This document shows positions 1 to 32,000 of a stretch of DNA of 32,000 bases, piece after piece (position 1 is the stretch's first letter; each line of letters begins with the position of its first letter). The stretch covers positions 300,001 to 332,000 of the forward strand of contig OY970170.1 in NCBI GenBank assembly GCA_963706795.1, given 5' to 3'. This DNA is from Candidatus Saccharimonadota bacterium. Its GTDB lineage: Bacteria > Patescibacteriota > Gracilibacteria > BD1-5 > UBA2023. The translations under genes were made by a program, and so were the position numbers. The notes under the pieces are model-generated. The model was not told the origin of the DNA and did no database searches. It worked only from the letters and a program-made list of their open reading frames with translations.

Positions 1-1284
1 GAGTGCGCCTGTCTCACTATAAATCGATCGAAATACCTGTGTATTTTGCAAGAAATCAGTCGATCTAAAGTCATAACTCTTTGAGCCTGTCATCGCGAGA
101 TTCCCACCAACTGGTGTAATAGAACCCGAAAACGTCACCTTGTAGTCACTCGAATACGCGAGTCCTGGACTCGAGTTCTTTACAATAAGAAATCTGCGTC
201 CCGCATCAGCTGCACCGTTTTCTGTTACCGCAGTCACTCCAATGTCCTTTCCAAATTCTGTAACATGCAAGAGAGGAATAAGATCTGCCGTCTTCACTGG
301 CGTATTAAAACTGAGTGGAATCCCCTTCAATGGAGAAAAATTCTGTGAAGGAGTTAACACTTCGAGTCTTGGAGTCTCAAAAGTAGCAGTTTTCGTCTCG
401 GAAAGTGGATAAAGTAAACCTTCTCTGGAAGCTACCTTAATATCAAATTTTGTCGCGTATGGAAGTGGATTTGTTGGCACAAATTCAAGAATCGATCCAT
501 TCGTCCAATTACATTTTCATTCCACTGCCGGAGTAATCTCGAGCGGACATGGCAGCGCATCTTTATTCGCCAAACTCGCAAGCGGAATCATTGGAATATT
601 AAAAAGCACAACGATATTTTTACTCACATTTGCAAGTCGCCCATCAGGCATGATGCGCATAGCTTTTGCTCCAGCGATTGCCTCTATCTCGTAGGTGATA
701 TCCTGTCCGAGCTTTGTTCCGTATTTGGATTTAATATCGCCTGAGAGAGTAATCGTGTAGTGATCTCCGATTTTAAGCTTGTTCGAGAGTTTGTAAGAGA
801 TGATATTCCCATCTTTGAGAGAAGCTTCTCCTGCTACATATGGTGCAAATCGGACACTTTCTTTGGTGATCGAACCCGCATCGAGTTCTTTCGAAAATGT
901 AATATCGATCGATGGTACGTCGTATGGAATCTTTTTGTATTCAAAGCTCCAATTACCAGCTACCACCGAAGGCGCAGCCAGGAAATATTGAGCACCAAAT
1001 ATTCCGACAGCCACAACAACAATCGCGGCAAATGCTCCAGAATATATCTTGGTATGTGCCATAAAGTTAGCACGAATCCGAGCAAAGAAGCCTTCGCCCT
1101 TTTTGATCTGAATGCCATCTTTAAGAAGCTCTTCTTTGAGCTTCATCGCAAATTGCTGGTCGAATTTTGTATCGGGTTTTTCGGCAAGCAGGGTTTTGAT
1201 GGCTTTCATAATTTCTTTTTTATGATCGGCGAGAGACGGGTCTACAGCGACGAGCTCTTCAAAGATTTTTGCAGCTGATTTCAT
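1..1284 (-). CDS. Single-pass membrane protein, putative anti-sigma factor with a large extracytoplasmic beta-rich/Ig-like region. The 3' end runs off the window.
   Basis: The ATG at 1284 lies 2 nt after the sigma-factor stop. The ORF-track fragment 517..1284 ends at TGA (517-519, minus). I checked every plus-strand triplet in this frame from 516 down to base 1 and found no TAA or TAG. There is one TM segment (YSGAFAAIVVVAVGIFGAQYFL) after a ~75-aa cytoplasmic head. The anti-sigma role is inferred from position only. Confidence 0.6.
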
Positions 1285-1286
1285 AT

Positions 1287-1841
1287 CTAAAAAAGGAAAA
1301 AGAAGAGGAACATAGCAATATTCGCCGCAATTTTTGCGAGCGTTCGAGAGATGATTTTTTTGACGTTTGAAAGGGATTCACCACTGATTTCTGCGATTTC
1401 TGCATATTTGAGATCGTCCCAAACTGCCATGAGCACAATGTCCTTATCTCGCACCGGAAGGGTTTCGAGATAAGCAAGGACTTTACCAAGACGCTCTTTT
1501 GCATCTATCGCACTTGCGTGGTCAGTCTGCTCTCCGAGAGACTCAGCGTGATCATCGAGTTCTTCATGCTGCTTGAGAGTTCGAGAGCGATCGACAATCG
1601 TGTTATACGCAATCCGAAAAAGCCACGACGCGAGTTCGGATTCGGACGAGCCACCAAAGCTTTCAAATGATTTCAGCGCTTTATAAAACGTATCCGAGGC
1701 AATTTCTTCGGAAGCGTCTCGATCGAATGTTCGATAGAACGCAAAATCGTAAATACGCTTGATAAAGGAATCATAGATTATCCCAAAAGATTCTCTATCT
1801 CCTGCGCGAAAAGATTCGATGGCAGACTCTAATTTTTGCAT
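1287..1841 (-). CDS. Sigma-70 family, ECF-type RNA polymerase sigma factor (184 aa)
   Basis: A region-2-like segment (RIYDFAFYRT...WLFRIAYNTIVDRSR) and a region-4 HTH (LPVRDKDIVLMAVWDDLKYAEIAEISGESLSNVKKIISRTLAKI) are present. I took the start at the internal ATG (MQKLESAIE). The stop is a true TAG at 1287-1289. Confidence 0.8.
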   Translation of the reverse strand: MQKLESAIESFRAGDRESFGIIYDSFIKRIYDFAFYRTFDRDASEEIASDTFYKALKSFESFGGSSESELASWLFRIAYNTIVDRSRTLKQHEELDDHAESLGEQTDHASAIDAKERLGKVLAYLETLPVRDKDIVLMAVWDDLKYAEIAEISGESLSNVKKIISRTLAKIAANIAMFLFFFLF

Positions 1842-1967
1842 AACCAGAAAACAAAGTGATGAATACCAAAGCCTATAACGAACACCCAAAAATAAGGTGA
1901 CAATTTAAAGTTAGTTTCATCTCTTTACTTGTTTTTGCAAAGATAAAATCTCACAGATAGCTTCCGA

Positions 1968-1995
1968 TTGATTCTCCTATATAAATCACTATGCT
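1968..1995 (+). promoter_or_regulatory. Candidate sigma-70-type promoter for the toxin-antitoxin/mutY/PBP unit
   Basis: TTGATT (1968-1973), a 16-nt spacer, then TATGCT (1990-1995), about 19 nt upstream of the ATG at 2014. This is pattern match only. Confidence 0.25.
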
Positions 1996-2013
1996 ATGTG
2001 CATATAAATTGCT

Positions 2014-2178: not shown

Positions 2179-2180
2179 TT

Positions 2181-2444
2181 ATGTTCTGCGACGATATACT
2201 CGAATCAAAAGAGGTAGTAGAATACCTTACAAAGAGAAATATCCTTGAGCCCTACAAGAAGGCTCGATCGTTTTTACTCGCAGGATTTCCCCAAAAATTC
2301 GACTTCAAGCTTCGTAAACCAAAAACTGCACAAGTCTACCAATTTCGAATCAACCAAAAATACCGAGCATTCTGATTTTTCAGAGAAGAGAGCGGCAAAA
2401 AAATCTTTATCGTTACAAAGATTTCCGATCATCAAGATTTTTAA
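2181..2444 (+). CDS. RelE/ParE-superfamily type II toxin (87 aa)
   Basis: ORF 2181..2375 ends at TGA. Read-through gives ...YQFRINQKYRAF-G-FFREESGKKIFIVTKISDHQDF with a TAA at 2442-2444. The pattern 'R-I-n-x-x-Y-R-a-x-G ... I-x-x-H-x-D' is the usual RelE/ParE C-terminal signature. Confidence 0.65.
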
Positions 2445-3454
2445 TGGAAATGAAAACTTTCCCCTACGACCTGCTTCTTGCTTGGCATGAGAAAAATGGT
2501 AGGCACGATCTCCCGTGGAGAAACTTTAAAAACAAGAGCGAGAAGGCTCGTGGATATGAAGTTTGGCTCTCAGAAATCATCCTCCAACAAACACAAGTGG
2601 ACCGCGGACACGAGTATTTTTTGCGTATTCTCGAAGCCTTTCCCACAGTCGAATCGCTCGCAGAGACGCCATATGAAACCTTCTTCTCATATTATAAATG
2701 ACTCGGATATTATTCGAGGGCACGCAACATGCTGAAGGCCGCAGAAATAGTGAGCCGGCAGTTTGGTGGAATATTTCCAAAAGAGACAGCCGAACTCGTA
2801 ACACTTCCCTGAGTTGGACCATATACGGCTGAGGCAATTCGAGCTTTTGCCTATGAAATCCCAACGCTTTCTTTTGATACCAATCTTGAGAAGGTTTTTG
2901 CACGTTACTACCATGGCTCGCGTTTTTTAAAGCTCTCTCAGGACGAAAAATCCGAGATCCTCAAGGCTTTTATCGCGAGTAGCAAATCGGCACGAGCAAT
3001 CAACTGAGCACTTATGGATTTTGCTTCTGCTTGCTCAAATAACCGTAAGACACTGGTCGATTTTGAGAATTATCCACTCAAAGATTGTCTCTTTTTTGAG
3101 ACGCAATGAGCCCTCGAAATCGAAACCCCAAAAATCAAAGCATACTTTCCTACAAAAGACGCGCAGATTGTGGTGATCATCCATGTCGATCATAGGAAAT
3201 ATTTTTCGGTACACAAAGATCATTATGCGCCTTTTGTGCTACCGGCAAGCGATGATGATACGCGCCATTTTGTGCAGGCATATTTTGAGAAGCATTACTC
3301 TCTCGAGCTCTCAGTTCGTCCAATTCACCTCAAAGAATACCGAGACAATAAGCCCTTTGTATTTGTTCATGCTCAGGTTCAGCGATGAGCGCATAATTTT
3401 GAATCCTTCGACAAACAAGCAAAAGACGAAGGGCTCGCAAAACTCGCGTACTAG
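2444..3454 (+). CDS. mutY: A/G-specific adenine DNA glycosylase (MutY), 336 aa
   Basis: Motifs seen: WLSEIILQQTQV (catalytic Glu), YYK-G-LGYYSRARN with the Gly at TGA 2699-2701, HhH-GPD LP-G-VGPYTAEAI with the Gly at TGA 2810-2812, and the FDTN Asp. A C-terminal MutT-like domain is present. The start ATG overlaps the toxin stop (TAATG). Five in-frame TGA codons; stop TAG at 3452-3454. Confidence 0.85.
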
Positions 3455-3509: not shown

Positions 3510-5543
3510 ATGCCACATTTCTCCAAACGATTACAAAAGATTGCCTTCATTTTTGGAGGAATTTGAGCGTTGCTACTCGTGGCATTTTTGGGTGTGAAAT
3601 ATTTCCTGCCCTACAACATTCCTCCACTTCCCGAATCCGACATCTATACCGATCGCACCGGCAAAGAAATCGCAGAAGTCGCTTACGAATCAAAAATCCG
3701 ACATCAGGATTTGAGCTTTGATGAGATTCCTATTTTTTATCGCGACGCACTCGTAGCACTCGAGGATCGATCTTTTTGGGATAACCAAGGCATCAGCCTC
3801 AAAGGAATTATCCGAAGCACCGTTGCAAATCTCAGCACCGGACAATTTGTCCAATGAGGTTCAACGATCACCAGCCAGCTCGTCCGCAATATCGAATGAG
3901 TCGAAAAATCGAGATCCTTCGGCAGAAAAATCCTCGAATTTATTTACGCAATTCGAGTCACAGGCAAATATAGCAAACAAGAAATCCTCACTGCGTACAT
4001 CAATCGCGTCGCCTATGGCCGGCTCAGTTACGGACTCGCAAGTGCAGCTAAGGTATATTTTGCCAAAACACCAAATACACTCACAAAGGCCGAGCAAATA
4101 GCCCTTCTCATCCTGCCACGCAATCCTCGGGCCTACGACCCAAAGCAAGAGGGTGAGGCATTCAGGGCTCGTTTTGAGATGGTAACCCACATGCTCGAAC
4201 AAGAGTACATCATCACCGAAACCGAAGCTGCGAGTATTCTCGCTGAACCACTTGCATATCGCAAAAGTCCAAATTCTCTTCCATACGTCATAGACTTTTT
4301 AGAGAAGAATTCTATTCCTCCTGGCCCAACAACATTCGATATTGATTTTACGAGCCACATTGATGATCTCGCCAAGAGCGTACTTATGGAAATTGGATGG
4401 AAAAATGTTACGGATTATGGCGTGATTATCGCTGATCGAGATACGAATGAGCTCAGAACCATGATTGGCTGAGTGAGTTATTCAAATAGTGAAAATGGCC
4501 AAGTAAATGCCGCGCTCGCCCCACGGCAAGTATGATCGACACTCAAACCATTCATCTATCTCCTTGCTGCACGCGATTTTGGAATTACCGCAAATGACAG
4601 CGTACTCGACTTGCCTGTTTCATATAAAACAGCCGATGATTACAGCTATGAACCAAAAAACTATTCAAAGGATTTCAAAGGCATCATCACCTATGCCGAA
4701 GCCCTCGCCGAGAGCGTAAATATTCCCGCTGTCACTACGCTTGAAAAAGTCGGCATTCAAAAATTGCTCGATTTTTTACATACTCTCGGAGTACAATCAC
4801 TCACTGACACCCCCGAACATTACGGCCTTTCACTCGCTCTTGGAAGCGGAGAAATCTCACTCTTTGAGCTTACTCAGGCATATAGTATTTTTTCAAATGG
4901 AGGATCATATTGCGCATTTGTCACCCAACCCTCAAAAACCAAAAACTGCGAACCTCGAGTCGACAAAAAATATACCGATATCATCGAGTCCATTCTCACC
5001 AGTCGCGAGAACAAAATGCGAAGCTTCCCAATCAATAGTGCACTCGATTTCTCAGATCGCAAAGTCTTTGTAAAGACAGGAACTTCGCGTAATTTTAGAG
5101 ATAACTGGGCAGTCGGATATACCGATCACTACCTCATCGGCGTCTGGAGCGGTAACAAAAATGCCGAAAATATGAAGGGTGTCTCTGGGGCCACAGGAGC
5201 GTGAGAAATCTTCGCCCGAATTGTTCGCGATCTCGAACCGATAAATGACCACATCGTACCAGAAGTCGCAGCCCAAAATATGACTGAATTTATTAGCATT
5301 GTCTCACCCCTAAACGGATCCGTATACCGCATGGAATCTTCTCGACCAGCCGAGCTCCAAACTCTCAAACTCACGAGCAAAACAAATATCGCTCACGACG
5401 ATGAAACATGGTATCTCGACAACAAAAAAGTGGAATGAAAATTCATCCCACTCAGTCTTTGAGAACATATAATTAGATACGAAATCCTCCGCGACAATCA
5501 GATTATAAAGAGCACCGAAACACGCTACCGCGTCGAGGAATAA
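3510..5543 (+). CDS. Class A penicillin-binding protein (bifunctional GT51 transglycosylase / transpeptidase), 677 aa
   Basis: The N-terminal TM segment includes a TGA-Gly. GT51 motifs: EDRSFWDNQGIS and Q-G-GSTITSQL with the first Gly at TGA 3855-3857. Transpeptidase motifs: V-G-STLKPF (SxxK, Gly at TGA 4533-4535), SxN-like region and KTGTS. Four ORF-track fragments (3570.., 4179.., 4611..) share one frame. Stop TAA at 5541-5543. Confidence 0.88.
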
Positions 5544-7927
5544 CTCACGAGTTTACGAGTCAGAAATACTCCAAGTATTCCCGTCCCAAGAATGAGAACA
5601 CCAATAGCAATCACGAACGCCGAGGGCGAAAACTTCATGAATGTCATCTTAGAAAGCACATAGAAGAATACTCCTATTCCCAGCGAAAAAACCAAGATCG
5701 CACAGAGTCAGATAAGCACCTGTGCACTTGTACGAAGGGATATCTGAATCTGCGACTTTGTTGCTCCAAAAAGTCCATAGAGTCTCGACTTCAAGCGTGT
5801 ACTTTGCTCGAGCGAAGAAAAGAGCGTCATCACCGCGAGGACTGCAAACACGGTAATAAAAACGAGGAAAAGCGAAAGAACTGAGAGAATCTTGTTTGAA
5901 ATCGTTCTCACTACCTCGAGGATCGATGCCACATCCACAAAAGTAACATGTGGACCAGTTGCGGTAAGCATGGCTTTTTTGAAGTATTCGACGTCTTTGG
6001 TATTTGTGGCCAAAAAATATGTCTTTGGTGCTTGTTCAAATGCCGCAGCATTCACCTGGAAATAAAAGAATGGCCGGAAGCCGCGCTCATTCGTCTCTCG
6101 TACTCCCGAGATAGTGAGATCAAAGCTTCTTCCTGATATCAAGAATGTAATCCGATCTCCAAGATCTACCCCAAGTCGTTCGGCAAAACCTGCATCTATG
6201 GTGACTGATTTTGGATCATTTGCCTTTGTTCAGCGCAAAATACGGACGTCATCTAATGGATTTGTTGTGATCGAAAATTCGCGCGTGAGATCACTGCTTG
6301 GATCTTTTTCTCCAGTATGCTGTTCAAGCGGTTTATCATTTACTGACGAAATTCGTGCCCGAATGATACTAAAAAGCTCATCTTTCGGGAATGCCTGAAC
6401 GACCTTCGCGCGATCGGATTCGAGGATATTCATCGCATAGATATTTGTGTCATCCGCCACACTGAGCACCAATCTATCCTGAAAAGTGAGGGAAATCGCC
6501 AAAAACACAAACACAGAAACAAGCGCCGTTGTAAGCGTCAAAGTCACCACGCTCGCCGGCATATTCGGCCGCACGAGTGAACGAAAACCATCAAACCGAA
6601 AAAATGTTCCCATCCGCAGCGACTGACTCCTTCGAAACATCCATCTAAAAATCCCTCTAAGCACAAAGAGCAAAATCAATATCCCAACAAGGAGAATCAC
6701 AGTAATGACGCCCGCTCTCAATGCTGTCTCAAATATCAAATAAAGAAGGGCAAAAAGCGAACCTATCGCGAGTCCAATCGTCAGATAAAAGAAGGCTTTT
6801 TTTGTAATAATTCCCTTGCTCGAGAGTGCACTCAGTGGAGATTCCGAAACAAATCGAGCTACCGATGGCACAATCGTCGCCACCACCAAAAGTCCTGCCA
6901 CTTCAGCTGTAAAGAGCAACGGCGAAACTAAAAAGACAAAATCCTTCGCCTCTTTAAAACTGCTCACGAAATACATAAATGAGACACCAATGCCCACAGA
7001 GAGCCCCAGACTCAAAAGCAATAATCCCAGATACAATCATCCAAGTAAAAAATATTTTTTACCCTTTGTGAGCCCTAAAAGCCCCAGTACTCCAAATGAT
7101 CGTCGCAGCTTTAAAAGCAATGTCTCATTCGCGCTATAGAGCGTAATCGCCGAAAACAATATCGAGATTACCAGCACAAGAAGCGTATACCTCGAGAGTT
7201 CATCTACCGCATTCGTCGCACGATTTGCATTTGAGCGATAAGATTTGATTTGGTATTTTTTGAGCGCAGGATCAGTCCTGAGTTTCGCATAGAGACTATC
7301 CGTAATTGCATCGCTCGGGAGCTTTAACAACAGTGTCGTCTGTGCCCGAGCACCCCGCGAGAGAAGCGTTGTTCCTGAGATTAATTCCTTTGGAAGAATG
7401 ACAATATTCCCCTCATCCCCAAACGAAAATCCCGTTTCACTCGTCTCAATAATTCGCTTTGCGATAGGCACTTTAAGCGTATCGATCGCGATCGTACCTC
7501 CGGATTCAAATCGATTAATCGTCGGTACATTTGCCATTGCCGATCAGGTTCTTGAGGGAATATCCTCAGTACGAAGCACGGAATATAACGGATATTTACC
7601 ATCTACTGCAATCACACGAACCAATCCAGTTTTGCCTTCTTTATCAAAAATCGTGGTATAAAAATCGGTCTTTTCAGCGAATTCATACTCGACTCATACG
7701 AGCTTATCCGCCAAGATTTTTTGAAGCGAACCTGTCATCATATCACTCGTCGAGATTGCGATATCCGCACCCAAAAACGGACGCGATTCGCGAGCTACGG
7801 TGAGCTCAACATTATCCGTAAGTTCTTTGGTGATCAAAAAACCCGCAAATGCCAGCGTAAAAACCACAAGCATCCGAATGATGGATTTTGGATCAGCAGA
7901 GAGAAGTGTTCGAAAAAGCGAAAACAT
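5525..7927 (-). CDS. Large FtsX/MacB-type ABC transporter permease (YbbP-like, two FtsX domains), 800 aa
   Basis: ORF fragments 7694..7927, 7037..7537, 6230..7036 and 5708..6142 are all in one frame and are joined by TGA codons. I translated the linking segments and they are open. The extracytoplasmic segment contains VDGKYPLYS, and multiple TM helices are present. Stop TAG at 5525-5527. Confidence 0.8.
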
Positions 7928-8010
7928 AGGCAGAGTTCAAAGAATTGCAGACTAGCCATTTTCGCAAGTTTTGAGAGAATCACAAATCAAAAACATCAGG
8001 CCTCTCAAAT

Positions 8011-8337: not shown

Positions 8338-8464
8338 CGTCCTGAATATCAAAATATGTACAGGAAGTATCTCAAAATGACGAACGAAAAAAACGGAAGA
8401 ATCTACGAAAAGTACTATTTGGACAATTGTTTTGTGTTGCTATTGGGTCAAGTATTTTACGTTA

Positions 8465-9514
8465 CTACAGTACTGTATGAGTATATGTATGTAGTACCTT
8501 AGATCATCGATCAGCAATAGTAGACTTAGATCGAATAACTACGATATTTTTAATGCTCGACTCGATCGCGCCCTGGCACACAATTCTCTCTTGGATATAT
8601 TTAATTGTTTCACGCAATCCAGCCTCAAGATGAATTTTAGGTTCCCATCAAAGCTTTTCTTTTGCAAGACTCGTATCAGCTCGCCGCTTTTTTGGATCAT
8701 CGGGTGGGAGAGCCTGATATACTAATTTGCTCGTGCTTTGAGGAATGAGTCTCAGAATTAACTCTGCAAGTTCCAGCATAGTAAATTCGAAAGATGTTCA
8801 AATATTTACTGGCCCCGTAAAATCGGTGGCATTATCCATCATTCGTATCATTCCATCTATAAGGTCTGTCACATATTGAAAACTTCTCGTTTGTAAGCCA
8901 TCGCCGTATATTGTAATGTCTTCATTTTTCAAGGCTTGTGTAATGAAGTTACTGATTACCCTACCATCCTCAGGATGCATATTTGGTCAGTAAGTATTGA
9001 ATATTCGAACAATCCGAGTACGTGTCCCATATTCGCGACTATAATCAGTGAACAATGTTTCTGATATGCGCTTCCCCTCATCATAACAACTTCTCCGGCC
9101 CACAGGATTTACATTTCACCAGTAGGATTCGCACTGTGGTTGAATCAAGGGATCTCCATAGACTTCCGATGTTGAAGCTTGTAATATTTTTGCTTTCACT
9201 TTAGTAGCTAAATCAAGCATATGAATTGCTCCGAGAATTGAAGTTTTGGCGGTCTCAACTGGATTTTTTTGGTAGTATGACGGGGAAGCAGGACAAGCAA
9301 GATTATATATCTCATCTACCTGCATCCAAAATGGCTGAGTGACGTCATGCAGCAAAAATGTAAAACGCGGATTCTTAAGGAAATCGTATATATTTTCCTT
9401 ATTTCCAGTGTATAAATTATCCAAGCAAATAATTTCATGCCCCTTGTTCAAAAGCGCCCTACAAAGGTGTGATCCTATAAATCCAGCACCTCACGTAATT
9501 AAGATTTTTTTCAT
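8465..9514 (-). CDS. UDP-glucuronate decarboxylase (UDP-xylose synthase)-like extended SDR, 349 aa
   Basis: [17 protein letters not shown] Rossmann motif with the Gly at TGA 9491-9493. Also [61 protein letters not shown] and [23 protein letters not shown]. The fragments 9116..9451 and 8798..8980 share a frame. Confidence 0.8.
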
Positions 9515-12849: not shown

Positions 12850-12870
12850 AAACATTCGTTAGAATATAAA

Positions 12871-21600: not shown

Positions 21601-21817
21601 CATAGCTGTCTGCATCGGTTTTTTTTAATAAATCATTCTCTGATGGAGCGCTAAAAAGCGTGGACTCGAGGAGATCCGCGAGCTCGTTAAATCCTTCGAT
21701 AATTCTATCTACAGAATTCACCACTGACTCCTCTAAGCTCTTCAAATGAGCTTGTTCCTCTGCTAGAGTTCTTTCTGGATTTTGTAAATATCCCTCTTCA
21801 TTATCAGCATTCATTTC
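18659..21817 (-). CDS. NACHT-type STAND P-loop NTPase, 1,052 aa, with an unassigned ~490-aa N-terminal domain and a ~450-aa helical C-terminal region
   Basis: Seven ORF-track fragments (21584.., 20726.., 20399.., 19859.., 19658.., 19352..) plus untracked stretches share one frame. I translated the full length by hand, found 24 in-frame TGA codons and no TAA or TAG until 18659-18661. Walker A: FIGGT-G-AGKS (20327-20350). Walker B: IIIID-G-IDEV (20150-20176), the NACHT hhhhDGhDE form. Downstream: NPLTMILFFNLL and SLDFASQSIEDFFRAHYF (F-x-H/S-x-S-x-Q/E-E/D-F-h-A-A-like). An alternative GTG start at 21838 overlaps the upstream gene by 14 nt. Confidence 0.8.
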
Positions 21818-21824: not shown

Positions 21825-23435
21825 TTAAATGGTACCACCCCTCACAATCCTTGCCACTCTAAAACTCTCAGGATGTCTCAGTGCCACAAAAAAATCAGAT
21901 ACTCCACCACGACAAACTATATCCAATTCTTCCCCGAAAGCCTTCTTTGTAAGTCTTTTAATTGGGGTCAGGAGTTTGGAAGCCATGTCACTTTTATTTG
22001 CGGTATAGCTAGACTTAGAGAGTCCGGAAATATTCACCTCATTTTTCCCAGAGAAAAATGCCATAAGTAATTCAATTGTAGCCTGTTGTGTAGGAATTTC
22101 CTTGGAAGAAACACGTTCACCACGCACGTAGATTCTTCGCGAAATAAGATCCAACAAAAGATCCTCTTCGTGAAAAGTAGACTCATCATATCGGATAATT
22201 CTTCTTGTTCCATTCAGCCATTCACACGTCACATAATTCCCCTTTGCAGAGAATTCCGAAACTATACCTTCTTCAACTGACTGTTCGATTTTTGGGGCCA
22301 TTGGAAGGTCTTTTCCGCTACTTAGAAACTCAATCGACATACGCGAATAGCTTATCTTCATCTGCTCAAAGGTCTTCGTAAGTACTTCATCGGCAGAAGG
22401 TCCAGAAAAGTACACAATGTAAGATCCACCATATCTTGAGTGATACAATGGTAAGAGCTCTATGAGATTTTGCTGATGAGAATTGAGCGAGGAGTAGGTC
22501 TCAAAAAAGTCACTCTCAAACGAAGTCATGCCTAGCTGAGCATGTATGAGTGAATTATATTTCTTGATTACAGAAAAGAAGTCAGCAACAACTCATGTTT
22601 TATGTGAATCAGCGATTAATTGGTGTAATCACTCAATATACTCATTAGACAGCATAGAATTGACCTCTCGAAATTTCTCAAATCTATCTAGTTGAGTCGA
22701 AATTTCCTCTTCAGCCATAGCAGTATGACTCAGTAGGCCCGAAAATATTACTGCGTACTGTACGCCATATTTACCAAATACTTCAGAAGTTTTGTCAGCA
22801 TACGCCTTCTCTAGAGTTCAATATTGAAACACCCGAGGGCATGCAAGAGGTTTGAGCGACTGGTAAAATAAGGCTTTTGGAGGATTTTTTGTAAAAATAC
22901 TCCAAATCTCTGACGCAGTATTAATGAGTTGCATCATAGTATGATCTGACTCATCCAATATTGATGTAAGTGTATGCGCATAAGAAGAATCCGCATTTAA
23001 GAACTCTATTACCATGGCGATGCCAAGTGATACATGCCCAGAAAATGCAAAGCACATGCCTCGACTTACCTCAGAGAAAAATGACACTCGTGCACCACGA
23101 TATATCTCTTGTCAGAGCAGAAAAGTCTCTAGTGCATCGAGTGCGGGCGCAAGCGAGCTTTTAGAGAAATCTGTAGTTACAAATTCATTGGTATGGTTAC
23201 TTCTTTCAGTGACGGCACCAAATTGAATGCCTCTATCTCAAGCAGTCGAGGTAAATGTTATGCCGATATATAAACGCTTATCTATATTTGCACGAGCATG
23301 TAGGAAATTTTCATCATATCTCAATGCAACATTTCCTAAACAAAATGAGTATGGTATTGAAAAAATGAGTTCATTTGTCTGAAAAAATTCTTCGTAAATA
23401 TTACGATAATCTGTTTGTAGAGATGAAGGATTCAT
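21825..23435 (-). CDS. Fusion protein, 536 aa, of an N-terminal GHMP-kinase-like domain with degenerate motifs and a C-terminal OmpR/PhoB-type winged-helix DNA-binding domain
   Basis: ORFs 23238..23444, 22818..23087 and 21825..22529 are in one frame, with 5 TGA codons. GHMP collinearity: motif I-like SIPYSFCLGNVALRYDENFLHARANID, motif II-like SEVSRGMCFAFSGHVSLGIAM (in place of PxGSGLGSSAA), and motif III-like SRYGGSYIVYFSG. The C-terminus LDLISRRIYVRGERVSSKEIPTQQATIELLMAFFSGKNEVNISGL...KSDMASKLLTPIKRLTKKAFGEELDIVCRGGVSDFFV follows the Trans_reg_C pattern. True TAA at 21825-21827. The fold assignments come from by-eye motif matching. Confidence 0.65.
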
Positions 23436-23562: not shown

Positions 23563-24309
23563 CTACATCCCCACCTCCACCAAAAGTGCCGCATGATCAG
23601 ACACGTCATCCTCTAGCACTCTAAAATCTAAAATATTCAGCTCCTTAGAAGCAATCGCATAATCAGCAAAGCGCGAGCCTGGTTTTGCATACCTTGGAGT
23701 ACGAGTCGAGGTGATTTTGTATTCAGCGATGAGATCGCGGCGGCCATCTGTGAGCATTTCGAGGCTCTCAGTATCGGGATTGAGATTGAAATCACCGATG
23801 ATCAAAACTGGTGTAGTGACAGTTTCGAGGAGAGAATTGATTCGTTCACTTTGGAGTATTCGAGCAGGAATATCGTGCTTTCCACCAAGTGCGTTCCAGA
23901 TTCCGTGGAAATTTACGATAGTGAGATTGTCCGTTGTGAGAATCTGGATCTTGCGAGCATGGTCGGCATTTTCGAGTTCGAGGAAATCTATGAATTGTGC
24001 GGGACCTGCGACCTGGTACTCTTGATAGGTTGTTTGGATATTTTTGCGTACAAACATGGCTATTCCGTAGACCTCATGCATGATTGAGGCAAAATAAACA
24101 TTAAAATCAGGAAGTATTTTTTGAATATTTGAGAGCATATTGATGTCGTGCAGCTCTCCTTTGGTGAACTGTACAAGCGTCTTACCTGATGGATCATTAT
24201 AGAATTCCTGGAAGCAAAAAATATCCGTGTCCTGAGCGTGTTTCTGAATAAATTCATAAATATCAGGGCGCACTCGTGCACCCCAACAATTGAGGGAAAT
24301 AATTTTCAT
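23563..24309 (-). CDS. Endonuclease/exonuclease/phosphatase (EEP) family protein, 248 aa
   Basis: An intact ORF with no TGA. Motifs: SLNCWG, FCFQEF, IIGDFNLNP and the C-terminal SDHAALLVEV (catalytic His). Confidence 0.85.
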   Translation of the reverse strand: MKIISLNCWGARVRPDIYEFIQKHAQDTDIFCFQEFYNDPSGKTLVQFTKGELHDINMLSNIQKILPDFNVYFASIMHEVYGIAMFVRKNIQTTYQEYQVAGPAQFIDFLELENADHARKIQILTTDNLTIVNFHGIWNALGGKHDIPARILQSERINSLLETVTTPVLIIGDFNLNPDTESLEMLTDGRRDLIAEYKITSTRTPRYAKPGSRFADYAIASKELNILDFRVLEDDVSDHAALLVEVGM

Positions 24310-24386: not shown

Positions 24387-26120
24387 CTATTCCTTGACCC
24401 AGCCTGATTGAAGATCAACCATTGAGGCGTAGTTTCCACCGAGTGCGAGGAGTGTCTCATGATCTCCGTCTTCGATCACTTTTCCAGCTTCGATAACGAG
24501 GATTCTGTCGGCTTCTTTGACAGTTTGGAGACGGTGTGCAATGACGATGACCGTTCGGTCTTTGAAGAGTTCGTGGAGCGCGAGCGAGACAGTGTGCTCA
24601 GAGACAGAATCCAATGCAGAAGTTGGCTCATCCAAGAGGAGAATTTTTGGGTTTTGCAAAAAGATTCGAGCGATTGCAAGTCGTTGACGCTCACCACCAG
24701 AGAGACGAACTCCACGTTCACCGATTTCGGTTTTTAGGCCGTCAGAGAGATCAAGGATAAAATCCGCATGGGCATTTTTGATAGCAATTTGGAGGTCGTT
24801 TTCGGAAGGGATTCTTCAGAGTCCATAGACGAGATTATCCTCAATGGTTCCATCAAATACCTGTGGATCTTGCGAGAGATAGCCAATATTTTTGTAATAG
24901 GTTGAGAGCGATAATTCTGAGAGATCTTGACCATCCACTAAGACTTGGCCATCTGATGGCTTCAAACTACGAAGAAGCAGCTTCATGATCGTCGATTTCC
25001 CAGCACCAGAATGCCCAATGAGTGCTGTTCGTTTAACTCATTCGATCGTGATAGAAAAATCAGAGAAAATCGCTCTATTTTCGGTATATGCAAAAACAAC
25101 ATTTCGGAACTCAATATCACCGTTTTTGAATACAAAATCAGTTCAGGTATCGTAATTTTCGATAGTACCGTTTTGGAGAATTGCAAAAAGTGCCATGAAA
25201 CTGTCCCGATTCCCCATGTAATCACGGAATATTTGTACGAGATTGCTGAGCGTCTGCTGAAAAAGCAGTACTAAGCTCGAAAGTCCAGCTATGAGTGCAA
25301 GTGAAACACTTTGTAGGCCATTATTCAGCGCATACGCATAAAGCGAAATAAGCATAATAGCCGAGAAAACTCATGGAAGACTGAACGAGGCAAAAAGATG
25401 ATTATTATATGACTGATCATACTCACCGTATTTTACATATTGTTCAGTGATATATGTTTGTTCCTCGGGAAACATTCTATTTTGAAGCACTGAAAAACGA
25501 GACATGAGCAGTCGTGTGAGTCGCCTATGGATATTTGTCTCAGTTTCAATGCGCTTGGTTCTTGGGATACGTGATCTTGCCATCAAAAAGTAGGTAATTA
25601 CTACGATTATCAAGAACAATAGCACAAATCATACTGACATTTTCCACGAAAAAGCGGAGAGCGATATCGTGATAGTTACAAAGGTGATGATCAGTCTTGG
25701 GAACTCGTAAATAGTAATCAAGAACATATCAGACCATGCCATAGATCAACGAAGCAGGAGCGAAAGAAGCTTCCCTGTTCAATACGATTCAAATTTTTCT
25801 GTCGGTAAAAGAAGCAGTGAACGAATGGCATGATTTTGGATATACGCGAGATATTTGGGGCGCATTTCCGTAATTCCCCAATGACGCCATGATGCAACGA
25901 TTGCGTAGTAAACAACGATTGTTGCCACAAATTGCCAAAGGAGATGATTCAGCAACTTCGAATCTTGTGCAGCGAGTGCATTTTGAAAGTGAGATACAAA
26001 CCAAACAGAAAAAAGCAGAAAACTCGAATATGTAATACACACGATCAAACCACGGATAAATACCCATGGTTTATTTTTCAGAGGCAAGAAAAAAGTCTGG
26101 AGCGGCGTAAGTGGAGACAT
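24387..26120 (-). CDS. ABC exporter with fused transmembrane and ATP-binding domains (MsbA/type I exporter-like), 577 aa
   Basis: The fragments 25779..26120, 25371..25625, 25143..25355 and 24387..24659 share a frame. Walker A GHSGAGKST, signature LSGGERQRLAIAR, Walker B ILLLDEPTSALD and H-loop IAHRL. TM helices in the N-terminal 300 aa. Confidence 0.9.
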
Positions 26121-26281: not shown

Positions 26282-27607
26282 TTAAACTCTCGATTTTTGT
26301 GAAATAAGCACTTCGAGTATATCATCGATCTCCCATACTTCTTGAATGCCGCTATTCAGATCCTTAAGGCTCAATTCGTTTTTCTCATCTATGAATAGCA
26401 TATATGCTATTCATTTCGAAGTTGCATGCTTAATCTGCTTTCCAGGCTTCTGAGCAAGATCATGGTATATTTCGCAATTTACTCACTTGGTTCTGAGAAT
26501 ACTCGCGATTTTATTACAATTTACGCGCTGTATTTCATTAAAACCCCCTATAAGCACTTGAGTGTTCGTTTTCTTTTTTGCATCAATCAATTTGAGGTGA
26601 TCGAGTATTCCGAATATTCGAGTAAGTCAGAGTGATATTCAGACACCAGGTAGCTGCTTATTTCCTATTGTATTCGTAAGATTTTCATATCTTCATCCCC
26701 CACAAATACTTAATGTAGGATATGCAGTAAGCCTCCCTTCAAAGATTGATCCTGTATAATAATCCAATCATCGTGCAAGATTGATCTTCAATTGAATAAG
26801 ATCAGAAACTTCTGGAAGAAGATTATCAATTACTGTTTCTACTTCTGACAATGCATTTTCAATAATCGCATTTGAAGCATACGCTGAGAATTTCGTACGA
26901 ATATCTTCCTTGTTAAGCTTGCTGGTAGAGTTATCGACCAGAAAAACTATGAGTTCCAAGGGGATATTCATTCACTGTAATTCCTCTATACATGCCTCTT
27001 TGCCAACTTTATCGAGTTTATCAATAGTCTTAATCATCAGTTTTTTATTTTGTTCGTCTATAGAAAAGAAATCACATAGGCCATCAAAAAAATTTCGATT
27101 ATTGAAGAATAACTCGAATTTACCTGGGACGATCTCATTAAGAGCCTTTACAGCTATCTCAAGAACCTCAGCATCAAAATGTAAAGGTAGCTTCTCATTT
27201 CAGACAATATCCACGTCCGCTTGAAGAAATTCCCTGTAACGTCAAAGTTGAGGTCTCTCACCACGCCAACATTTCTGAATTTGATATCGCTTGAACGGAA
27301 ATTCCAAGTCATTGAAATTGCTTGTCACATAGCGAGCAAATGGTATCGTTAAGTCAAAATGAAGACCCATTTTAGATTCAGATTCTTGCACCTCTACATC
27401 TCAGAAATCAAAGTGTCTTTTCACTCCATAAATCTCCTTATCATCTGATCATTTTGCTAGTAGAACTGACATATTTTCTACAACTGCTGTTTCTACTGGC
27501 ACATAGCCATAGCCTTCGTAAATCTTCCTAGAACTATCTATCCAGTTATTCATGGAAATCTGTTCACGTGGAAGTAATTCTGGGAATCAGTTTATAGCGG
27601 ATTTCAT
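26282..27607 (-). CDS. hisS: Histidine--tRNA ligase, 441 aa
   Basis: N-terminus [15 protein letters not shown]. Motif 2: [27 protein letters not shown]. Also [12 protein letters not shown] (TGA 26768-26770) and motif 3 CGG-G-RYENL. A C-terminal anticodon-binding domain is present. I translated it by hand to the TAA at 26282-26284. Confidence 0.9.
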
Positions 27608-27708: not shown

Positions 27709-28323
27709 CTAAATTCGCGGTAAGCAGAGTGAAGTAGTATTTGTTAAAAAGGCGTGAAATTGGCAATAGAGACTCTTCGTGAGCGCGTATCATTGCTTTT
27801 CTTCTGGAAGCATTTCAGCAAAAGTTAAAGAGGTTCATTTGGGTACAAAAATCGTATCCCAGTCATACCCATTTGTTCACCGCGGGAAAGTTGCGATCTC
27901 TCATTCGAGCGACTCAGAGAAGTAGTACTCATTTACTCCGTCAAAATATCCGAGTACTGCTTGCCAGAGGCATCCACTATCTGCATTTGCATCGACGAGA
28001 TAACAAATATTTTTGTCACCCATATGCCCAAAAACATCTTTAATAAGGGCTCAAGGGAATTTTTTTGTATCTGAATTTTTGCAGAGGCCATGAATAACGA
28101 GTGAAGCATCCATAACAAAACAGGGCTTTCCAGTTTGAGAAAAGGCATATTTGAGCTTTGCTCTTATTACTTCTGCCACATCAACATTTTGTATTTCGGG
28201 TACGAAGATATCTCCTTTCTGTATAACAAATCAAGGTAGGTACATACTCGCTTCATTTACCTTATTTTGATTGCCGGTGACAAAGAGGATTTCAGTGTGT
28301 TTTTGGTTTGTTGATTGGATCAT
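27709..28323 (-). CDS. rdgB: RdgB/HAM1-family non-canonical purine NTP pyrophosphatase (ITPase), 204 aa
   Basis: Not in the ORF track in the right frame (track ORF 27933..28148 is out of frame). Motifs: ILFVTGNQNKVNEA, PEIQ, FP-G-ALIKD and FPR-G-TNGYDWDTIFVPK-G-TSLTFAEMLPEEK. Confidence 0.8.
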
Positions 28324-28341: not shown

Positions 28342-29208
28342 CTAAACACTGTGCTCCAAAAACAAAAAACCAGCACTCACACCCTTCTCAAGATTTTTCG
28401 CTCGAATGCCCGTAAAGATAATATCTTTGGTAGTGTTTTGAAGCACTAAATCACCGTCAAAGGCATATATTTCGCCAGGATTGACCTGATGAAAGTCGAG
28501 AGTTTGGCCTATAAATCTAAAGTTATCCGTCTTTGGAACCATCTCAGATAGAAACGAGAAAGCTTTGCGGCCTTCCTGAATTTTTGAAAGCTCGGGGAAA
28601 GACTCAAATATCTGAGTATATTTGAGAAAACGGAGCGTGTTTTCCCAAGCTCTCTCTCATCCGTCAGGTGAACTATGATTTCCTGCCTCCATCCCGAAAC
28701 CCTTGCCACCGGAGCGAATGACCGATCCGATGACAGCATTATCACTTGCGCCTATAAGCAAATACGGAACATCACACCATGCAAACAGCTCAGATGCGAG
28801 CCCAGAATTTGTGATTCCGGCACAAAAATCTCACTCAGAAACACTGTGAATATCGAGCACGAAATCAAAGGAAGAAATGAGTGGTAAGAGCTCGTCTCGA
28901 CGGATAAATTCTCTGCCGGTTCCCTGCTTTGTTGGTCACCAGATGCGATTCATATCTGCATCGAGAAATCTTACGGGTGCAGATTTACCGCTCGCATCCA
29001 GATGTAAATACGCCTCGATGTTCATGGGAACAAGCGTGAGACTTCATTGCACTATGGGGTATTCGCGGAGAAATGTTTCGATACGGGAAAATACTTCTAA
29101 TCCCACCGGTTCATTTCCATGTGTGATCGCTAAAATTCAGACTGATGGACCTGGAATGTTGGAACTATAAGTATGAATTTTGAGATTATTGGAATAATTC
29201 TTAGGCAT
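28342..29208 (-). CDS. Succinylglutamate desuccinylase/aspartoacylase (AstE/AspA, M14-like) family protein, 288 aa
   Basis: Motifs: AITHGNEPVGLEV, DADMNRIW, VLDIHS and GMEAGNH. I translated by hand from the ATG at 29208 across 6 TGA codons. It is in frame with track ORF 28342..28542 and has a true TAG stop. Confidence 0.75.
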
Positions 29209-29235
29209 GAGGAAAGATGTGATGTGAACAAATAT

Positions 29236-29781
29236 CTATACGACAATCTCTCGGAGGCATTTTTCTAATTCCTCCATGTTAGCAATCCCCTTACATGGAA
29301 AGCGCTTGGGATCGGTTTTATAGCGATCATCGAGATACTGGTCAGCGAGTTTATCAGACCAACCACCTGTTCCCTTCATGACAAAGACGGGAATTTTTTT
29401 CTGATATGCAACGGTAATCTCATTGAGAGTTCCGCTTCCACCACCAACTGTAACAATAGCATCGCAACTTGAGACAAGCACAAATTCTCGTCCTCCGCCT
29501 CGTTCCATGCCGGTACACACCATACAGTCAGTGAGTGAGAGCATTTCACCCCAAACATCTGGTGTTTTACCGTACGTCACACCCATTACAATTCCGCCAA
29601 CTGATTTTGCTCCGCGAGCAGCACTTGTTGAGAGGCTATCGCTGTCTTTTTCGGCTCCATATACCATAACGCTTCCGAGCGAAGCAATGAGCTTGCCAAT
29701 CTCGTAGGCCATGTCAGCAATGGTGGATTCATATCCGAGATCTGCTGCGGATCCCATGACTCAGATTTGTAGTTTTTTCAT
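29236..29781 (-). CDS. LOG/TIGR00725-like Rossmann-fold nucleotide-binding protein, 181 aa
   Basis: MKKLQI-G-VMGSA at the N-terminus, and VGGGSGTLNEI matching the PGGxGTxxE-type motif of the LOG/lysine-decarboxylase-like family. Confidence 0.75.
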
Positions 29782-29796
29782 GAATAATTGATGTTT

Positions 29797-30624
29797 TTAG
29801 AATGTTTCTATATGAGATCGAACCTGCTCCATAAACACCCTCACCTTCTCACTATCTATCAATTCCTCAAAGGAACGGAGATTAATCTCATGATCTGGAA
29901 GGGTTTGAGTCTTGAAGTAGGTGCCGACTATTGCACTATCACAAACTGAGAGTACTTGAGTTGCATTTTCCAGGGTGACACCGCTTCCAGAAATAATAAA
30001 AGCATCTGGACAGACTGATCTGACAGCTTGAAGGTCCGAAGCAAGTGGCTGATCCCCCGTCCACTTCCCTGTAATGATGAGTCCATCGGATCATTGCTCT
30101 ATAGCACGAATAGCTGATTGTTCGAGAGAATCAGGATTGAGAATCTCAGAATGTTTTACGTGAATATCAGTGAATATCTGAATATGTTCAGCCTGAAGTT
30201 GCTTGCGATATGCGAGAACTTCTGCTGGGTTTTCTGTGATTTCGTAGCCGTAGTGCGTTCGAATATGATCGACAAAGACAGGGATTCTCACAAATTGAAA
30301 GTCAGCAAACCGTGCAATTGAGAGTGCACTCTTCCAGTCATTCCAGAGACAACAGATGCCGAGCGGTAGTTTTGTGGCCTTACGAAGTTCGATACAAATT
30401 GCAGTGAATTGCACGAGTACTTCTGTATCGAGAAGTCTTGTATGTGGAAGATCGTAATTATTTTCGATCATGATAGCATCAATACCGCCATCGACGAGAG
30501 ACTTGAGGTCTGCGAGTGCTTTTGCGAGAATGGTCTCGTGTGGAAGTGAGTCCTTAAAGCCAATAAGCGGAGGCAAATGGATCATTCCTATGATTGGATG
30601 TTTTGATGGGAAGATTGATGGCAT
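29797..30624 (-). CDS. BtpA/SgcQ-family TIM-barrel protein, 275 aa
   Basis: The N-terminus PIIGMIHLPPLIGF is typical of BtpA. ORF 30091..30624 continues through TGA 30091 to ...SGSGVTLENATQVL...MEQVRSHIETF with a TAA at 29797-29799. The last ~17 codons include repeat copy B. Confidence 0.75.
29819..29869. repeat. Copy B of the ~50-bp direct repeat, inside the 3' end of the BtpA-like gene
   Basis: See copy A. Here the repeat encodes ...LIDSEKVRVFMEQVRS. In the corresponding frame copy A would encode SEKVRVFMEKVRAY followed by a stop. Confidence 0.7.
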
Positions 30625-30629
30625 GGAAT

Positions 30630-32000
30630 TTAGGTAAGTGCTTCGATTCGAGATTTCATTTTGTCACAGAGTTGTTTAACGCGCATCTCGGATATAGCTC
30701 TTCTGGCTTTTGTAAATGCAGCGCGCAAGTAGAGAGGATTGATAATATCGTTGATGACAAAGTCATCTTGATCCATACTCCCATCTACCGTGAGTATAGC
30801 CAAGGCTGTATTACAACAAACCAGGTTTATGAGATCTTCATTAGCTGTATTTGAGATAATATCAGCATTAGCAGTATTAATAAGTGTTTCATCTGATGGC
30901 AATAAGGCTGATTCTATATTGATAGATACTCCAAAATCCTTGTCAGAGAGAACGTATTTTCACTTGTATTTACCATTTTGAACCACTCATACCACCGACC
31001 CAAGCGGCGAAAATTCATCAAGGCAGATTTCGGTATGGATATCTTCTTTAGAAATATCAGGAAGTTCGTTGTATCCGCCAACCACGAGGACATTTCAAAC
31101 GTTATATACATTTTTTTCATGAAGTACTTGATATGCTTCACTGATTGTCTGAAAGCGAATATTGTGATTAATTCCGAGAAGTTTATTGAGCTTTGTATCT
31201 TTACTGATAGGGGGTGTGAGGGGTCAGAGAAGATGGTTAACAGTCTCAGTACGCAAAACCTCTCCAGAAATATCATGAATAGACTTTGAAAGCTTGGCAT
31301 CTGTGAAGACATAGCCATCTTGTTCTAATAAATTTTGCGGCTGACTTGATGAATCAAAGGATACATTAAAACCAAAATCCCGAACAGCATCAGTTGATCC
31401 CACTGCAGTAGTATTTTTACCACTTCCATGCTTCATAGTTGGATATCCAAGGGAGGCAACAACAAAGGAAGCAAGGGTAGAAATATTCGCAGATTTACGA
31501 TTGCGAGTCTTATAAGATTGTTTAATTTCACGATCAGGCAAAACAACAGACTCCATCAAGAAGTTATAGTATGCCGTCAGATCAGAATCTTCTAACTCTG
31601 ACGAAAATCCTGTCTTAATTTTGTCATGGAGTGCAGCATATATCTCTCAAAAGTTTGAAACTCCAAATCCTATATCACCTCACATACCGCAAGTCTCCAC
31701 AATCATTGGGGCATTCACTATATACGTAAAATCAAGTCGTGTGGCCGCTACCATTCAAGCGATTTCTTCAGGGGTAATGAGATCTCTTTCTTCTTGAAAG
31801 CGCATAGTAAGAAGAAAAATCACAGCCTCCATCTCGAGCTCGTGGTACGACTTATTAGGACAAATCTTGTTTCTGAGCGTTGGATTATTCACCGTAACAA
31901 TACTCAAAGCACCAGCAAATGCTTCTGCATATGTGAGTGGGGTACCAGATTCAGCTTTTTGGATGAGCTCCATAAAGACACATTCTCTAGCTTGAACAAT
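30630..32000 (-). CDS. Glycosyltransferase family 3 protein (anthranilate phosphoribosyltransferase / nucleoside-AMP phosphorylase-like). The 5' end is possibly beyond the window.
   Basis: The fragments 31755..31973, 31224..31559 and 30630..30902 share one frame, and I translated the linkers and found them open. Motifs: ETCGM-G-GD (compare DTCGTGGD), ANISTLASFVVASLGYPTMKHGS and AVGSTDAVRDFG. A Met lies at 31973, but the frame stays open to base 32000. Longer than a typical TrpD. Confidence 0.7.

Follow-up and report, generated by a model that had tools for sequence, protein, structure and literature searches.

In-frame UGA codons on conserved glycine positions point to translation table 25 in a 32-kb window from a small-genome bacterium

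Introduction

In the 32,000-nucleotide stretch of DNA analysed here (the window), TGA recurs inside long, otherwise uninterrupted genes, which raises the question of how this codon is read. The initial annotation had proposed that TGA encodes glycine throughout, and that the DNA belongs to a recoded CPR genome. The analysis very strongly favors the view that this chromosomal DNA comes from a bacterium with a small genome, and that its genes are read with NCBI translation table 25. Under this code, UGA would serve as an ordinary glycine codon, supplying about a quarter of the glycine codons in the window, UGG would be the sole tryptophan codon, and genes would end at UAA and UAG only. Judging from published work on table 25, UGA would be decoded by a dedicated tRNAGly with the anticodon UCA, and release factor 2 would have been lost, so that release factor 1 alone would terminate translation at UAA and UAG. 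The reassignment of UGA to glycine is rare but already described, and the phenomenon as such is known. It matters in practice: standard software mistranslates every gene here, and the searched protein collection holds this genome only as table-11 fragments or with tryptophan replacing glycine.

Open reading frames and codon use

With only TAA and TAG treated as stops, the window contains 142 in-frame TGA codons across 24 long genes, which tile the sequence at a coding density of 92.7%. Table 11 cuts these genes into 166 pieces, of which 97 are at least 30 aa long, matching the roughly 100 fragments estimated initially. When TGA is freed, the longest open reading frame (ORF) of the window grows from 286 to 1085 aa, whereas the control of freeing TAA or TAG leaves ORF lengths unchanged. 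Within the 24 genes, TGA occurs at 14.3 per 1000 codons and makes up 23% of all Gly codons; Gly accounts for 6.2% of codons with TGA included and 4.8% without it. At least one in-frame TGA is present in 22 of the 24 genes, and the codons are spread uniformly along the genes (KS p = 0.96), with no 3′ enrichment. Matches to Pfam domains continue unbroken across TGA codons in HisRS, PBP, UXS, Hsp70, Nudix, GT1, APH, ABC, Ham1, and others. TGA density differs strongly from gene to gene.

The window includes the stop codon of 23 genes, and in every case it is TAA (11) or TAG (12). In-frame TAA or TAG is absent from the 24 genes, and none of them requires a TGA terminator. The high share of TAG among the stops (12/23) is an indirect hint that prfB, encoding release factor 2, may be absent. 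The count of 27 uninterrupted genes given initially holds as far as their TAA/TAG endings are concerned, but the tally itself comes to 24 solid genes plus up to three small doubtful ORFs. The warning that a standard-code annotation would be badly wrong is borne out by the public gene calls, since NCBI/ENA-derived calls are fragments of 43-173 aa and Logan calls place Trp at Gly sites. The window has a GC content of 40%. No tRNA genes were detected in it or in the Logan contigs L001, L002, and L051, which match it identically and total 46 kb, and the window contains neither rRNA nor ribosomal protein genes.

Genes of the window and the location of TGA codons

The genes are described in window order and lie on the minus strand unless stated otherwise. 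All nine sites for which the initial annotation had given coordinates are TGA, in frame within long ORFs. The first gene (g01, 1..1284, 1 TGA) is of the alpha-2-macroglobulin/MG2 type, as indicated by Pfam A2M, MG2, and bMG10 matches to the complete gene as called in Logan; the window holds the N-terminal 428 aa of a 2294-aa protein, the rest of which lies beyond it. It is followed by a sigma-70 family factor of 184 aa without TGA (g02, 1287..1841). On the plus strand, a MutY-like HhH-GPD glycosylase (g03, 2444..3454, 5 TGA) has TGA at codons 86 (2699-2701) and 123 (2810-2812), both aligning with Gly of E. coli MutY, and at codon 187, which aligns with the Gln of FNQAMMDLG and is the clearest non-Gly site. 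Also on the plus strand, a class A penicillin-binding protein with GT51 and transpeptidase domains (g04, 3510..5543, 8 TGA) carries TGA at codons 116 (3855-3857), 321, and 342 (4533-4535), where PBP1a structures have Gly. The next gene (g05, 5525..7927, 5 TGA) encodes a hydrophobic, probably membrane protein of 800 aa with no match in the Pfam search.

A UDP-glucuronate decarboxylase-like SDR (g07, 8465..9514, 6 TGA) shows Gly of human UXS1 at all five alignable TGA sites, including the Rossmann motif T-G-GAGFIG (9491-9493). Downstream in window order are an NAD-dependent epimerase/dehydratase (g08, 9543..10466, 4 TGA) and a Nudix hydrolase (g09, 10497..10943, 5 TGA). Both Gly positions of the Nudix box had been claimed as TGA; on reading the sequence, REILEET-TGA-A does represent the terminal Gly of the strict box, but IEF-TGA-E corresponds to the common Gly that precedes the box Glu. 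A group 1 glycosyltransferase (g10, 10956..12035, 10 TGA) and an APH-family phosphotransferase (g11, 12019..12855, 6 TGA) come next, followed by a YegD-type Hsp70 family protein (g12, 12871..14121, 14 TGA), which at 416 aa with TGA read through has the length of its homologs. Among 115 distant homologs, Gly reaches at least 90% at six of its 14 TGA columns and occurs in 115/115 sequences at five of these six, the DF-G-TTNS site (14089-14091) included; at four further TGA columns it is the commonest residue. The other TGA noted initially in this gene, the first of G-LDF-G-TTNS, is at 14101-14103. Three consecutive genes (g13, 14313-16283, 5 TGA; g14, 16356-17255, 3 TGA; g15, 17315-18475, 2 TGA) had no match in the Pfam search.

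A P-loop NTPase of 1052 aa (g16, 18659..21814) carries 24 TGA codons; one lies in its Walker A motif, GGT-TGA-AGKS (20339-20341), and another in a Walker B-like motif, IIIID-TGA-IDE. The Walker A placement had been reported correctly, but no profile confirms the NACHT label attached to it: the protein gave no Pfam match with X at the TGA sites and only sub-threshold matches with Gly substituted (AAA, 21.0 bits against a cut-off of 21.2; NPHP3_N, 18.4 against 24.8), a single weak PADLOC match (mad8, 16 bits, E = 0.0016), and no match in a PDB search. The motifs GGTGAGKS and IIIIDGIDE resemble those of NACHT proteins, and membership in that family is an unconfirmed possibility. The adjacent gene (g17, 21825..23435, 536 aa, 5 TGA) matched neither Pfam nor PADLOC, and an endonuclease/exonuclease/phosphatase family protein of 248 aa (g18, 23563..24309) is the other gene without TGA; the source contigs were traced through it. 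An ABC exporter of 577 aa with fused membrane and ATPase domains (g19, 24387..26120, 7 TGA) is divided into two ORFs by the public table-4 gene call.

The histidyl-tRNA synthetase (HisRS; g20, 26282..27607, 12 TGA) is 441 aa long with TGA read through, again the homolog length. Among 109 distant homologs, Gly makes up at least 94% of the residues at nine of its 12 TGA columns and is present in 109/109 sequences at seven of these; R-G-LDYYTG (26768-26770) and GG-G-RYE are among the conserved sites, and PDB homologs likewise have Gly at 9 of the 12. The remaining genes encode a Ham1/ITPase family protein (g21, 27709..28323, 6 TGA), an AstE/AspA-type deacylase (g22, 28342..29208, 5 TGA), a LOG-like protein (LDcluster4; g23, 29236..29781, 1 TGA), a BtpA family protein (g24, 29797..30624, 1 TGA), and a Glycos_transf_3 family protein (g25, 30630..32000, 7 TGA in the window), of which the C-terminal 456 of 484 aa are covered.

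Glycine identity of UGA

In the combined HisRS and YegD alignments (109 and 115 distant homologs, respectively), columns that are at least 90% Gly make up 15 of the 26 at TGA but 16 of 831 elsewhere (Fisher p = 2.8e-17). Fifteen of these 16 non-TGA columns correspond to GGN codons, and among non-Gly codons just 1 of 792 columns reaches this level. Inspection of homolog columns, a check proposed in the initial annotation, upholds conserved Gly at 15/26 sites, but not every TGA codon is on a Gly column: three sites in HisRS and several in YegD are variable. Summed log-odds at TGA over 24 well-occupied columns are +64.4 bits for Gly, −63.0 for Ala, and −109.2 for Trp, and over 31 columns Gly scores +63.6 bits; glycine across the window, as first proposed, agrees with these values. 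In PDB structures of homologs that use the standard code, Gly stands at five TGA sites of UXS, three of PBP1a, and two of MutY. Taken as sequence comparison, these data support reading UGA as Gly and not Trp; they show selection for glycine at the UGA sites and speak to that selection, not to the residue physically inserted.

Codon controls behaved as expected for an otherwise standard code, with TGG scoring as Trp (+21.9 bits), GGN as Gly, and CGA as Arg (+18.4 bits over 16 columns; 100 CGA codons in the 24 genes). The rarer CGG (31 codons in the 24 genes) is found on no Trp column; three of its columns were scored, and conserved Arg sites in UXS and PBP carry it. Every clearly positive codon score agrees with table 11, and conserved Trp columns in the window are TGG. 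The remaining code therefore looks standard, that is, plain table 25 and not table 4.

Relatives and taxonomic position

Recoding extends to the closest relatives in HisRS, which share 57-61% identity and have 26% GC. Their contigs require TGA as a sense codon (longest ORF 138 aa versus 537 aa), W residues in their proteins are TGA in their DNA, and at invariant Gly columns TGA and GGN alternate among them. In one relative, GCA_964435215.1 (L047), HisRS contains no TGG, and its sole CGG and sole CGA lie on conserved (invariant) Trp columns; this genome carries the Absconditabacteria-type CGA/CGG-to-Trp signature, an additional change that the window lacks. Table 25 is the Candidate Division SR1 and Gracilibacteria code (Campbell et al. 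2013 and Rinke et al. 2013, cited in PMC8629427; preprint 10.64898/2026.05.24.727570), and the initial view that it is so far known only from Gracilibacteria and Absconditabacteria agrees with this literature (PMC8629427; preprint 10.64898/2026.05.24.727570). On the basis of such published work, the most probable home of the organism is GTDB class JAEDAM01, the Patescibacteria clade that comprises Gracilibacteria (BD1-5) and Absconditabacteria. The designation "recoded CPR genome" finds indirect support in the source contig of 1,267,896 bp, in the recoded closest relatives, and in the Absconditabacteria signature of one of them.

Alternative explanations

That UGA might encode tryptophan under table 4, as it does in Mycoplasmatales and certain insect endosymbionts, is suggested by its restoring long ORFs as well as table 25 does; the comparison of tables initially recommended confirmed the gain from freeing TGA, and tables 4 and 25 give equal ORFs because ORF length cannot separate them. 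The public Logan proteins were called on the assumption of table 4, whence their Trp translations. This reading is nevertheless scarcely credible, as it is contradicted by the column log-odds and by TGG at conserved Trp columns, and no TGA column of HisRS or YegD is Trp-rich. We give practically no weight to a standard code in which the TGAs stem from pseudogenes, from errors in sequencing or assembly, from selenocysteine, or from UGA acting as stop or sense depending on context. Nothing specific favors it beyond the two TGA-free genes and the uneven density, and it must face 142 in-frame TGA codons against zero in-frame TAA/TAG, their uniform placement, and the homolog-like lengths of read-through HisRS and YegD. 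Errors and pseudogenes are contradicted by run ERR12037365, whose independent assembly in Logan is 100% identical over 21 kb, and by relatives that keep TGA or GGN at the sites; selenocysteine is contradicted by alignment of TGA sites with Gly, not Cys, and by an Rfam search that found no SECIS and no other element.

A further explanation accepts UGA as glycine but places the organism outside the known Gracilibacteria/Absconditabacteria clade, so that the reassignment would have arisen independently or at a much deeper node. The organism's best matches are indeed distant once its own Logan copies are left out (61% identity for HisRS, own copy P0003 with TGA translated as Trp; 51% for YegD, own copy P0129), its GC content (40%) differs from that of the nearest relatives with a recoded genome (26%), the CGA/CGG-to-Trp change of one relative is missing, and a few table-25-like genomes are at present assigned to other Patescibacteria orders (gTranslate preprint 10.64898/2026.05.24.727570). 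However, the authors of that preprint take such outlier placements as misclassification, 40% GC lies inside the published range of the clade (0.21-0.53; PMC8629427; preprint 10.64898/2026.05.24.727570), the 1.27-Mb contig fits the clade, and recoding is seen in the nearest HisRS relatives, one of which bears the Absconditabacteria signature. HisRS and YegD are, moreover, poor phylogenetic markers. We regard this origin as improbable, and table 25 within the known clade is preferred.

Comparison with known genetic codes

Table 4, in which UGA is read as Trp, is used by Mycoplasmatales, Hodgkinia, Zinderia, Nasuia, Stammera, and some Eggerthellaceae. It resembles the code of the window in its equal ORF-length and coding-density signal and, probably, in the capture of UGA from release factor 2 in a reduced genome, but the amino acid in the window is Gly, more than 170 bits apart in column log-odds. 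The extended Absconditabacteria code, which combines UGA-to-Gly with CGA/CGG-to-Trp (Shulgina & Eddy 2021, PMC8629427), shares the UGA reassignment and is found in its full form in the relative GCA_964435215.1, whereas in the window CGA is Arg, CGG falls on Arg where this can be judged, and Trp is TGG. With table 25, the window shares frequent sense UGA on conserved Gly, UGG as Trp, UAA and UAG as the sole terminators, and the small genome (1.27-Mb contig) and GC content of its clade; taxonomic membership is the probable element of this match, and the code itself shows no difference.

TGA as a sense codon

With the six frames of the window (GC content, 40%) read between stop codons, the longest open reading frame (ORF) extends from 286 aa under the standard code (table 11) to 1085 aa once TGA is freed; in control analyses where TAA or TAG was freed instead, the maximum stayed at 286 aa. 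With TAA and TAG as the sole stops, 24 long genes (22 on the minus strand) tile the window at a coding density of 92.7%. These genes carry 142 in-frame TGA codons (14.3 per 1000 codons), and in-frame TAA (n = 11) and TAG (n = 12) occur solely as terminators, which bears out the initial annotation in its view that reading TGA as sense yields uninterrupted genes ending in TAA or TAG. The nine codons it had located (2699-2701, 2810-2812, 3855-3857, 4533-4535, 9491-9493, 14089-14091, 14101-14103, 20339-20341, and 26768-26770) are all TGA triplets lying in frame in the long genes. Read with table 11, the 24 genes are cut into 166 pieces (median, 37 aa), and the 97 pieces of at least 30 aa agree with its estimate of roughly 100 fragments.

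TGA positions are crossed by Pfam matches to histidyl-tRNA synthetase (HisRS), class A penicillin-binding protein (PBP), two SDR epimerase/dehydratases, Nudix, GT1, APH, Hsp70, ABC, Ham1, AstE/AspA, and Glycos_transf_3. The read-through lengths of HisRS (441 aa) and the YegD-type Hsp70 (416 aa) equal those of their homologs. With TGA counted, glycine makes up 6.2% of codons rather than 4.8%.

The amino acid specified by UGA

In comparisons with homologs from standard-code organisms, each TGA-encoded residue was kept unassigned (X), so that no amino acid was assumed. Glycine faces TGA at all five alignable sites between the UXS-like SDR protein (g07) and human UXS1, including that in T-G-GAGFIG, and at 9 of 12 sites between HisRS (g20) and three PDB enzymes. 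When HisRS was aligned with 109 homologs, each below 45% identity, nine TGA columns had Gly in at least 94% of sequences, including seven at 109/109, and three were variable. Against 115 distant homologs of YegD (g12), 6 of 14 TGA columns were at least 90% Gly, with Gly the commonest residue in four more. A composite query of the PBP gene (g04), the adjacent membrane-like gene g05, and a flanking tRNA synthetase retrieved distant long PBPs only; as these aligned poorly at the GT51 motif, the PBP was checked against PDB entries, and PBP1a structures have Gly opposite its TGA codons 116, 321, and 342. Similarly, Escherichia coli MutY has Gly opposite TGA codons 86 and 123 of the MutY-like gene (g03), in which codon 187 faces the Gln of FNQAMMDLG and several other TGA sites fall in variable loops. 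Such sites in non-conserved columns are the behaviour of any Gly codon.

Summed in the manner of Codetta, the log-odds of 24 well-occupied columns came to Gly +64.4 bits, Ala −63.0 bits, and Trp −109.2 bits; adding the noisier PBP alignment (31 columns) left Gly at +63.6 bits. Columns of at least 90% Gly make up 15 of 26 TGA columns and 16 of 831 others (Fisher p = 2.8e-17); 15 of those 16 are at GGN codons, leaving a single such column among the 792 at non-Gly codons. Thus, UGA is translated and its sites are under selection for glycine, and the alignments of HisRS, YegD, UXS, PBP, and MutY concur with the earlier proposal that TGA occupies invariant Gly positions in unrelated families.

Other explanations of the in-frame TGA codons were weighed. 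Translation of UGA as Trp (table 4) was rejected on the log-odds of Trp against Gly over the 24 columns. A dual role of UGA as stop and sense codon was rejected as well, since TGA is placed uniformly along genes (KS p = 0.96) and no gene needs it as a terminator. Selenocysteine at UGA, and pseudogenes or sequencing errors as the source of in-frame TGA, were also considered and rejected.

Public protein records

The TGA-free proteins g02 (sigma-70 family) and g18 (endonuclease/exonuclease/phosphatase family) are both found on one NCBI/ENA contig of 1,267,896 bp, and also on two contigs of the Logan collection (run ERR12037365), which match the window at 100% identity for 9.4 kb and 11.8 kb. HisRS, UXS, and the product of g23 occur in the protein collection searched in just two forms, neither of them a Gly translation: the Logan form is a TGA=Trp translation, and the form from the NCBI/ENA contig consists, for UXS and g23, of fragments of 43-173 aa. 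With only table-11 fragments or Trp translations in the collection, the warning that a standard-code annotation would be badly wrong was justified. Under table 4, 142 glycines become Trp, some of them in catalytic motifs (the Rossmann GxGxxG, Walker A, the SxxK neighbourhood, and the Nudix box). All other observations on the window depend on table 25 translation, and sequences from such genomes have to be translated before analysis.

An ABC exporter gene (24387-26120, minus strand, 577 aa), which has a weak ABC_membrane match and an ABC_tran match, is split in the public table-4 gene call into a 362-aa C-terminal part and an ORF of 180 aa that lies in a different frame (25525-26067); hence a recoding-aware caller also mis-annotates this locus.

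Uneven use of TGA and individual genes

TGA use differs strongly among the 24 genes (chi-square 70.3, df 23, p = 1e-6) and declines with rising gene GC (Spearman −0.70, p = 1e-4). In the 11 genes with a GC content below 40% (e.g., g10-g12, g16, and g20), 35% of Gly codons are TGA, compared with 13% in the 13 genes of at least 40% GC; TGA is absent from g02 and g18 and occurs once each in g01, g23, and g24. Possible causes of this unevenness are AT mutation pressure, expression level, and differing histories of the genes, and the tracking of local GC may interest studies of how a newly acquired Gly codon expands when mutation favours AT.

The single TGA of g01 stands among 30 Gly codons in the part of the gene within the window (1-1284). 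The gene, at 10558-17442 of a Logan contig identical to the window (L002), directly follows the sigma-70 family gene and encodes a 2294-aa alpha-2-macroglobulin/MG2-type protein, very large for a 1.27-Mb genome. Five consecutive genes on the minus strand (g13-g17, 14313-23435) have no Pfam match. Among them, g16 encodes a 1052-aa P-loop protein with 24 TGA codons, including the Gly of both Walker A (GGT-G-AGKS) and a NACHT-like Walker B (IIIID-G-IDE). Its initial label as a NACHT protein was not upheld by Pfam, PADLOC, or PDB: the PDB search returned no match, and PADLOC only a weak mad8 match (16 bits). Between convergent or divergent genes lies a 537-nt gap (7928-8464) that contains weak ORFs only, one on the minus strand (8011-8337, 109 aa, two TGA codons) and an apparently spurious one on the plus strand (8089-8502); Rfam gave no match there at E ≤ 1. 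The adjoining UXS-like protein has a C-terminal tail of ~35 aa beyond its homologs, with one TGA inside.

Recoded relatives and placement

The closest HisRS relatives (57-61% identity) carry W or G at invariant Gly columns, and these W residues are TGA in their DNA. Two of them have contigs (26% GC) in which TGA is needed as a sense codon, since reading through it extends the longest ORF from 138 aa (table 11) to 537 aa. The HisRS gene of one relative, GCA_964435215.1 (contig CAYSXV010000009.1, 10001-11305), has 28 in-frame TGA codons and no TGG, and the one CGG and one CGA it contains lie on two conserved Trp columns (Trp in 91 and 109 of 109 homologs, respectively). This pattern is the CGA/CGG→Trp reassignment reported for Absconditabacteria by Shulgina & Eddy (PMC8629427). 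The same contig bears a second HisRS-family gene (14113-15390).

The TGA-encoded Gly columns and the ORF gain of these relatives, with the CGA/CGG→Trp signature of one, place the nearest detectable kin of the window within the known UGA=Gly radiation, and assignment of the source organism to the Gracilibacteria/Absconditabacteria clade is, as an inference, well supported. A genome-collection scan with HisRS peptide patterns reached only ~40% identical HisRS genes, mostly from Actinomycetota and none from a close relative. Beyond the recoded relatives, the window's HisRS (26282-27607) matches proteins at ~40-43% identity from Ktedonobacteria, Actinomycetota, Alphaproteobacteria, and one member of Peregrinibacteria; given this scatter, this HisRS type is patchily distributed and an unreliable phylogenetic marker.

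We consider it very improbable that the genome represents a UGA=Gly lineage that branches deeply, outside the known orders and with no close sequenced relative. What speaks for such a lineage is the lack of close relatives and the higher GC: once the copies of its own proteins in Logan (P0003 and P0129) are set aside, the best matches reach 61% identity for HisRS and 51% for YegD, and the GC content of 40% is unusually high against 26% in the recoded relatives. If the lineage did fall outside BD1-5 and Absconditabacterales, this would suggest that UGA was reassigned to Gly earlier or independently.

Probable decoding of UGA

By analogy with the literature on table 25 (PMC8629427; preprint 10.64898/2026.05.24.727570), UGA would be read by a tRNA-Gly(UCA), and with RF2 lost, RF1 alone would terminate translation at UAA and UAG. 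The near-equal stops (12 TAG, 11 TAA) agree with RF1-only termination and prove nothing. No tRNA gene was detected in the window, nor in the identical Logan sequence scanned (46 kb, three loci), and scans extended to four relatives' loci gave no tRNA(UCA), their sole match being a tRNA-His in a relative. An Rfam search of the window yielded no match at the gathering threshold or at E ≤ 1.

Comparison with known genetic codes

The description of table 25 in SR1/Absconditabacteria and Gracilibacteria dates to 2013 (PMC8629427; preprint 10.64898/2026.05.24.727570). In current surveys the code is still restricted to the GTDB class JAEDAM01, orders Absconditabacterales and BD1-5, in line with the initial annotation, which named these two groups; a small number of outlying genomes are interpreted as misplaced (preprint 10.64898/2026.05.24.727570). 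UGA=Gly here is thus one more instance of an already known phenomenon; it will not surprise a specialist, and its main weight is practical, in translation.

Under the same log-odds scoring, TGG is read as Trp (+21.9 bits), CGA as Arg (+18.4 bits, 16 columns), and GGN as Gly, and all other codons with a clearly positive score agree with the standard code. Scored columns are too few for CGG, but the CGG codons at positions 167 and 277 of g07 and 339 of g04 lie opposite Arg in UXS1 and PBP1a, and none lies opposite Trp. On these codon scores, the uniform TGA placement, and the read-through gene lengths, the window fits table 25 exactly, agreeing with it in every sequence-level property tested. 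In contrast, it departs from table 4, and also from the CGA/CGG→Trp extension of Absconditabacteria, as its CGA, CGG, and TGG codons are canonical.
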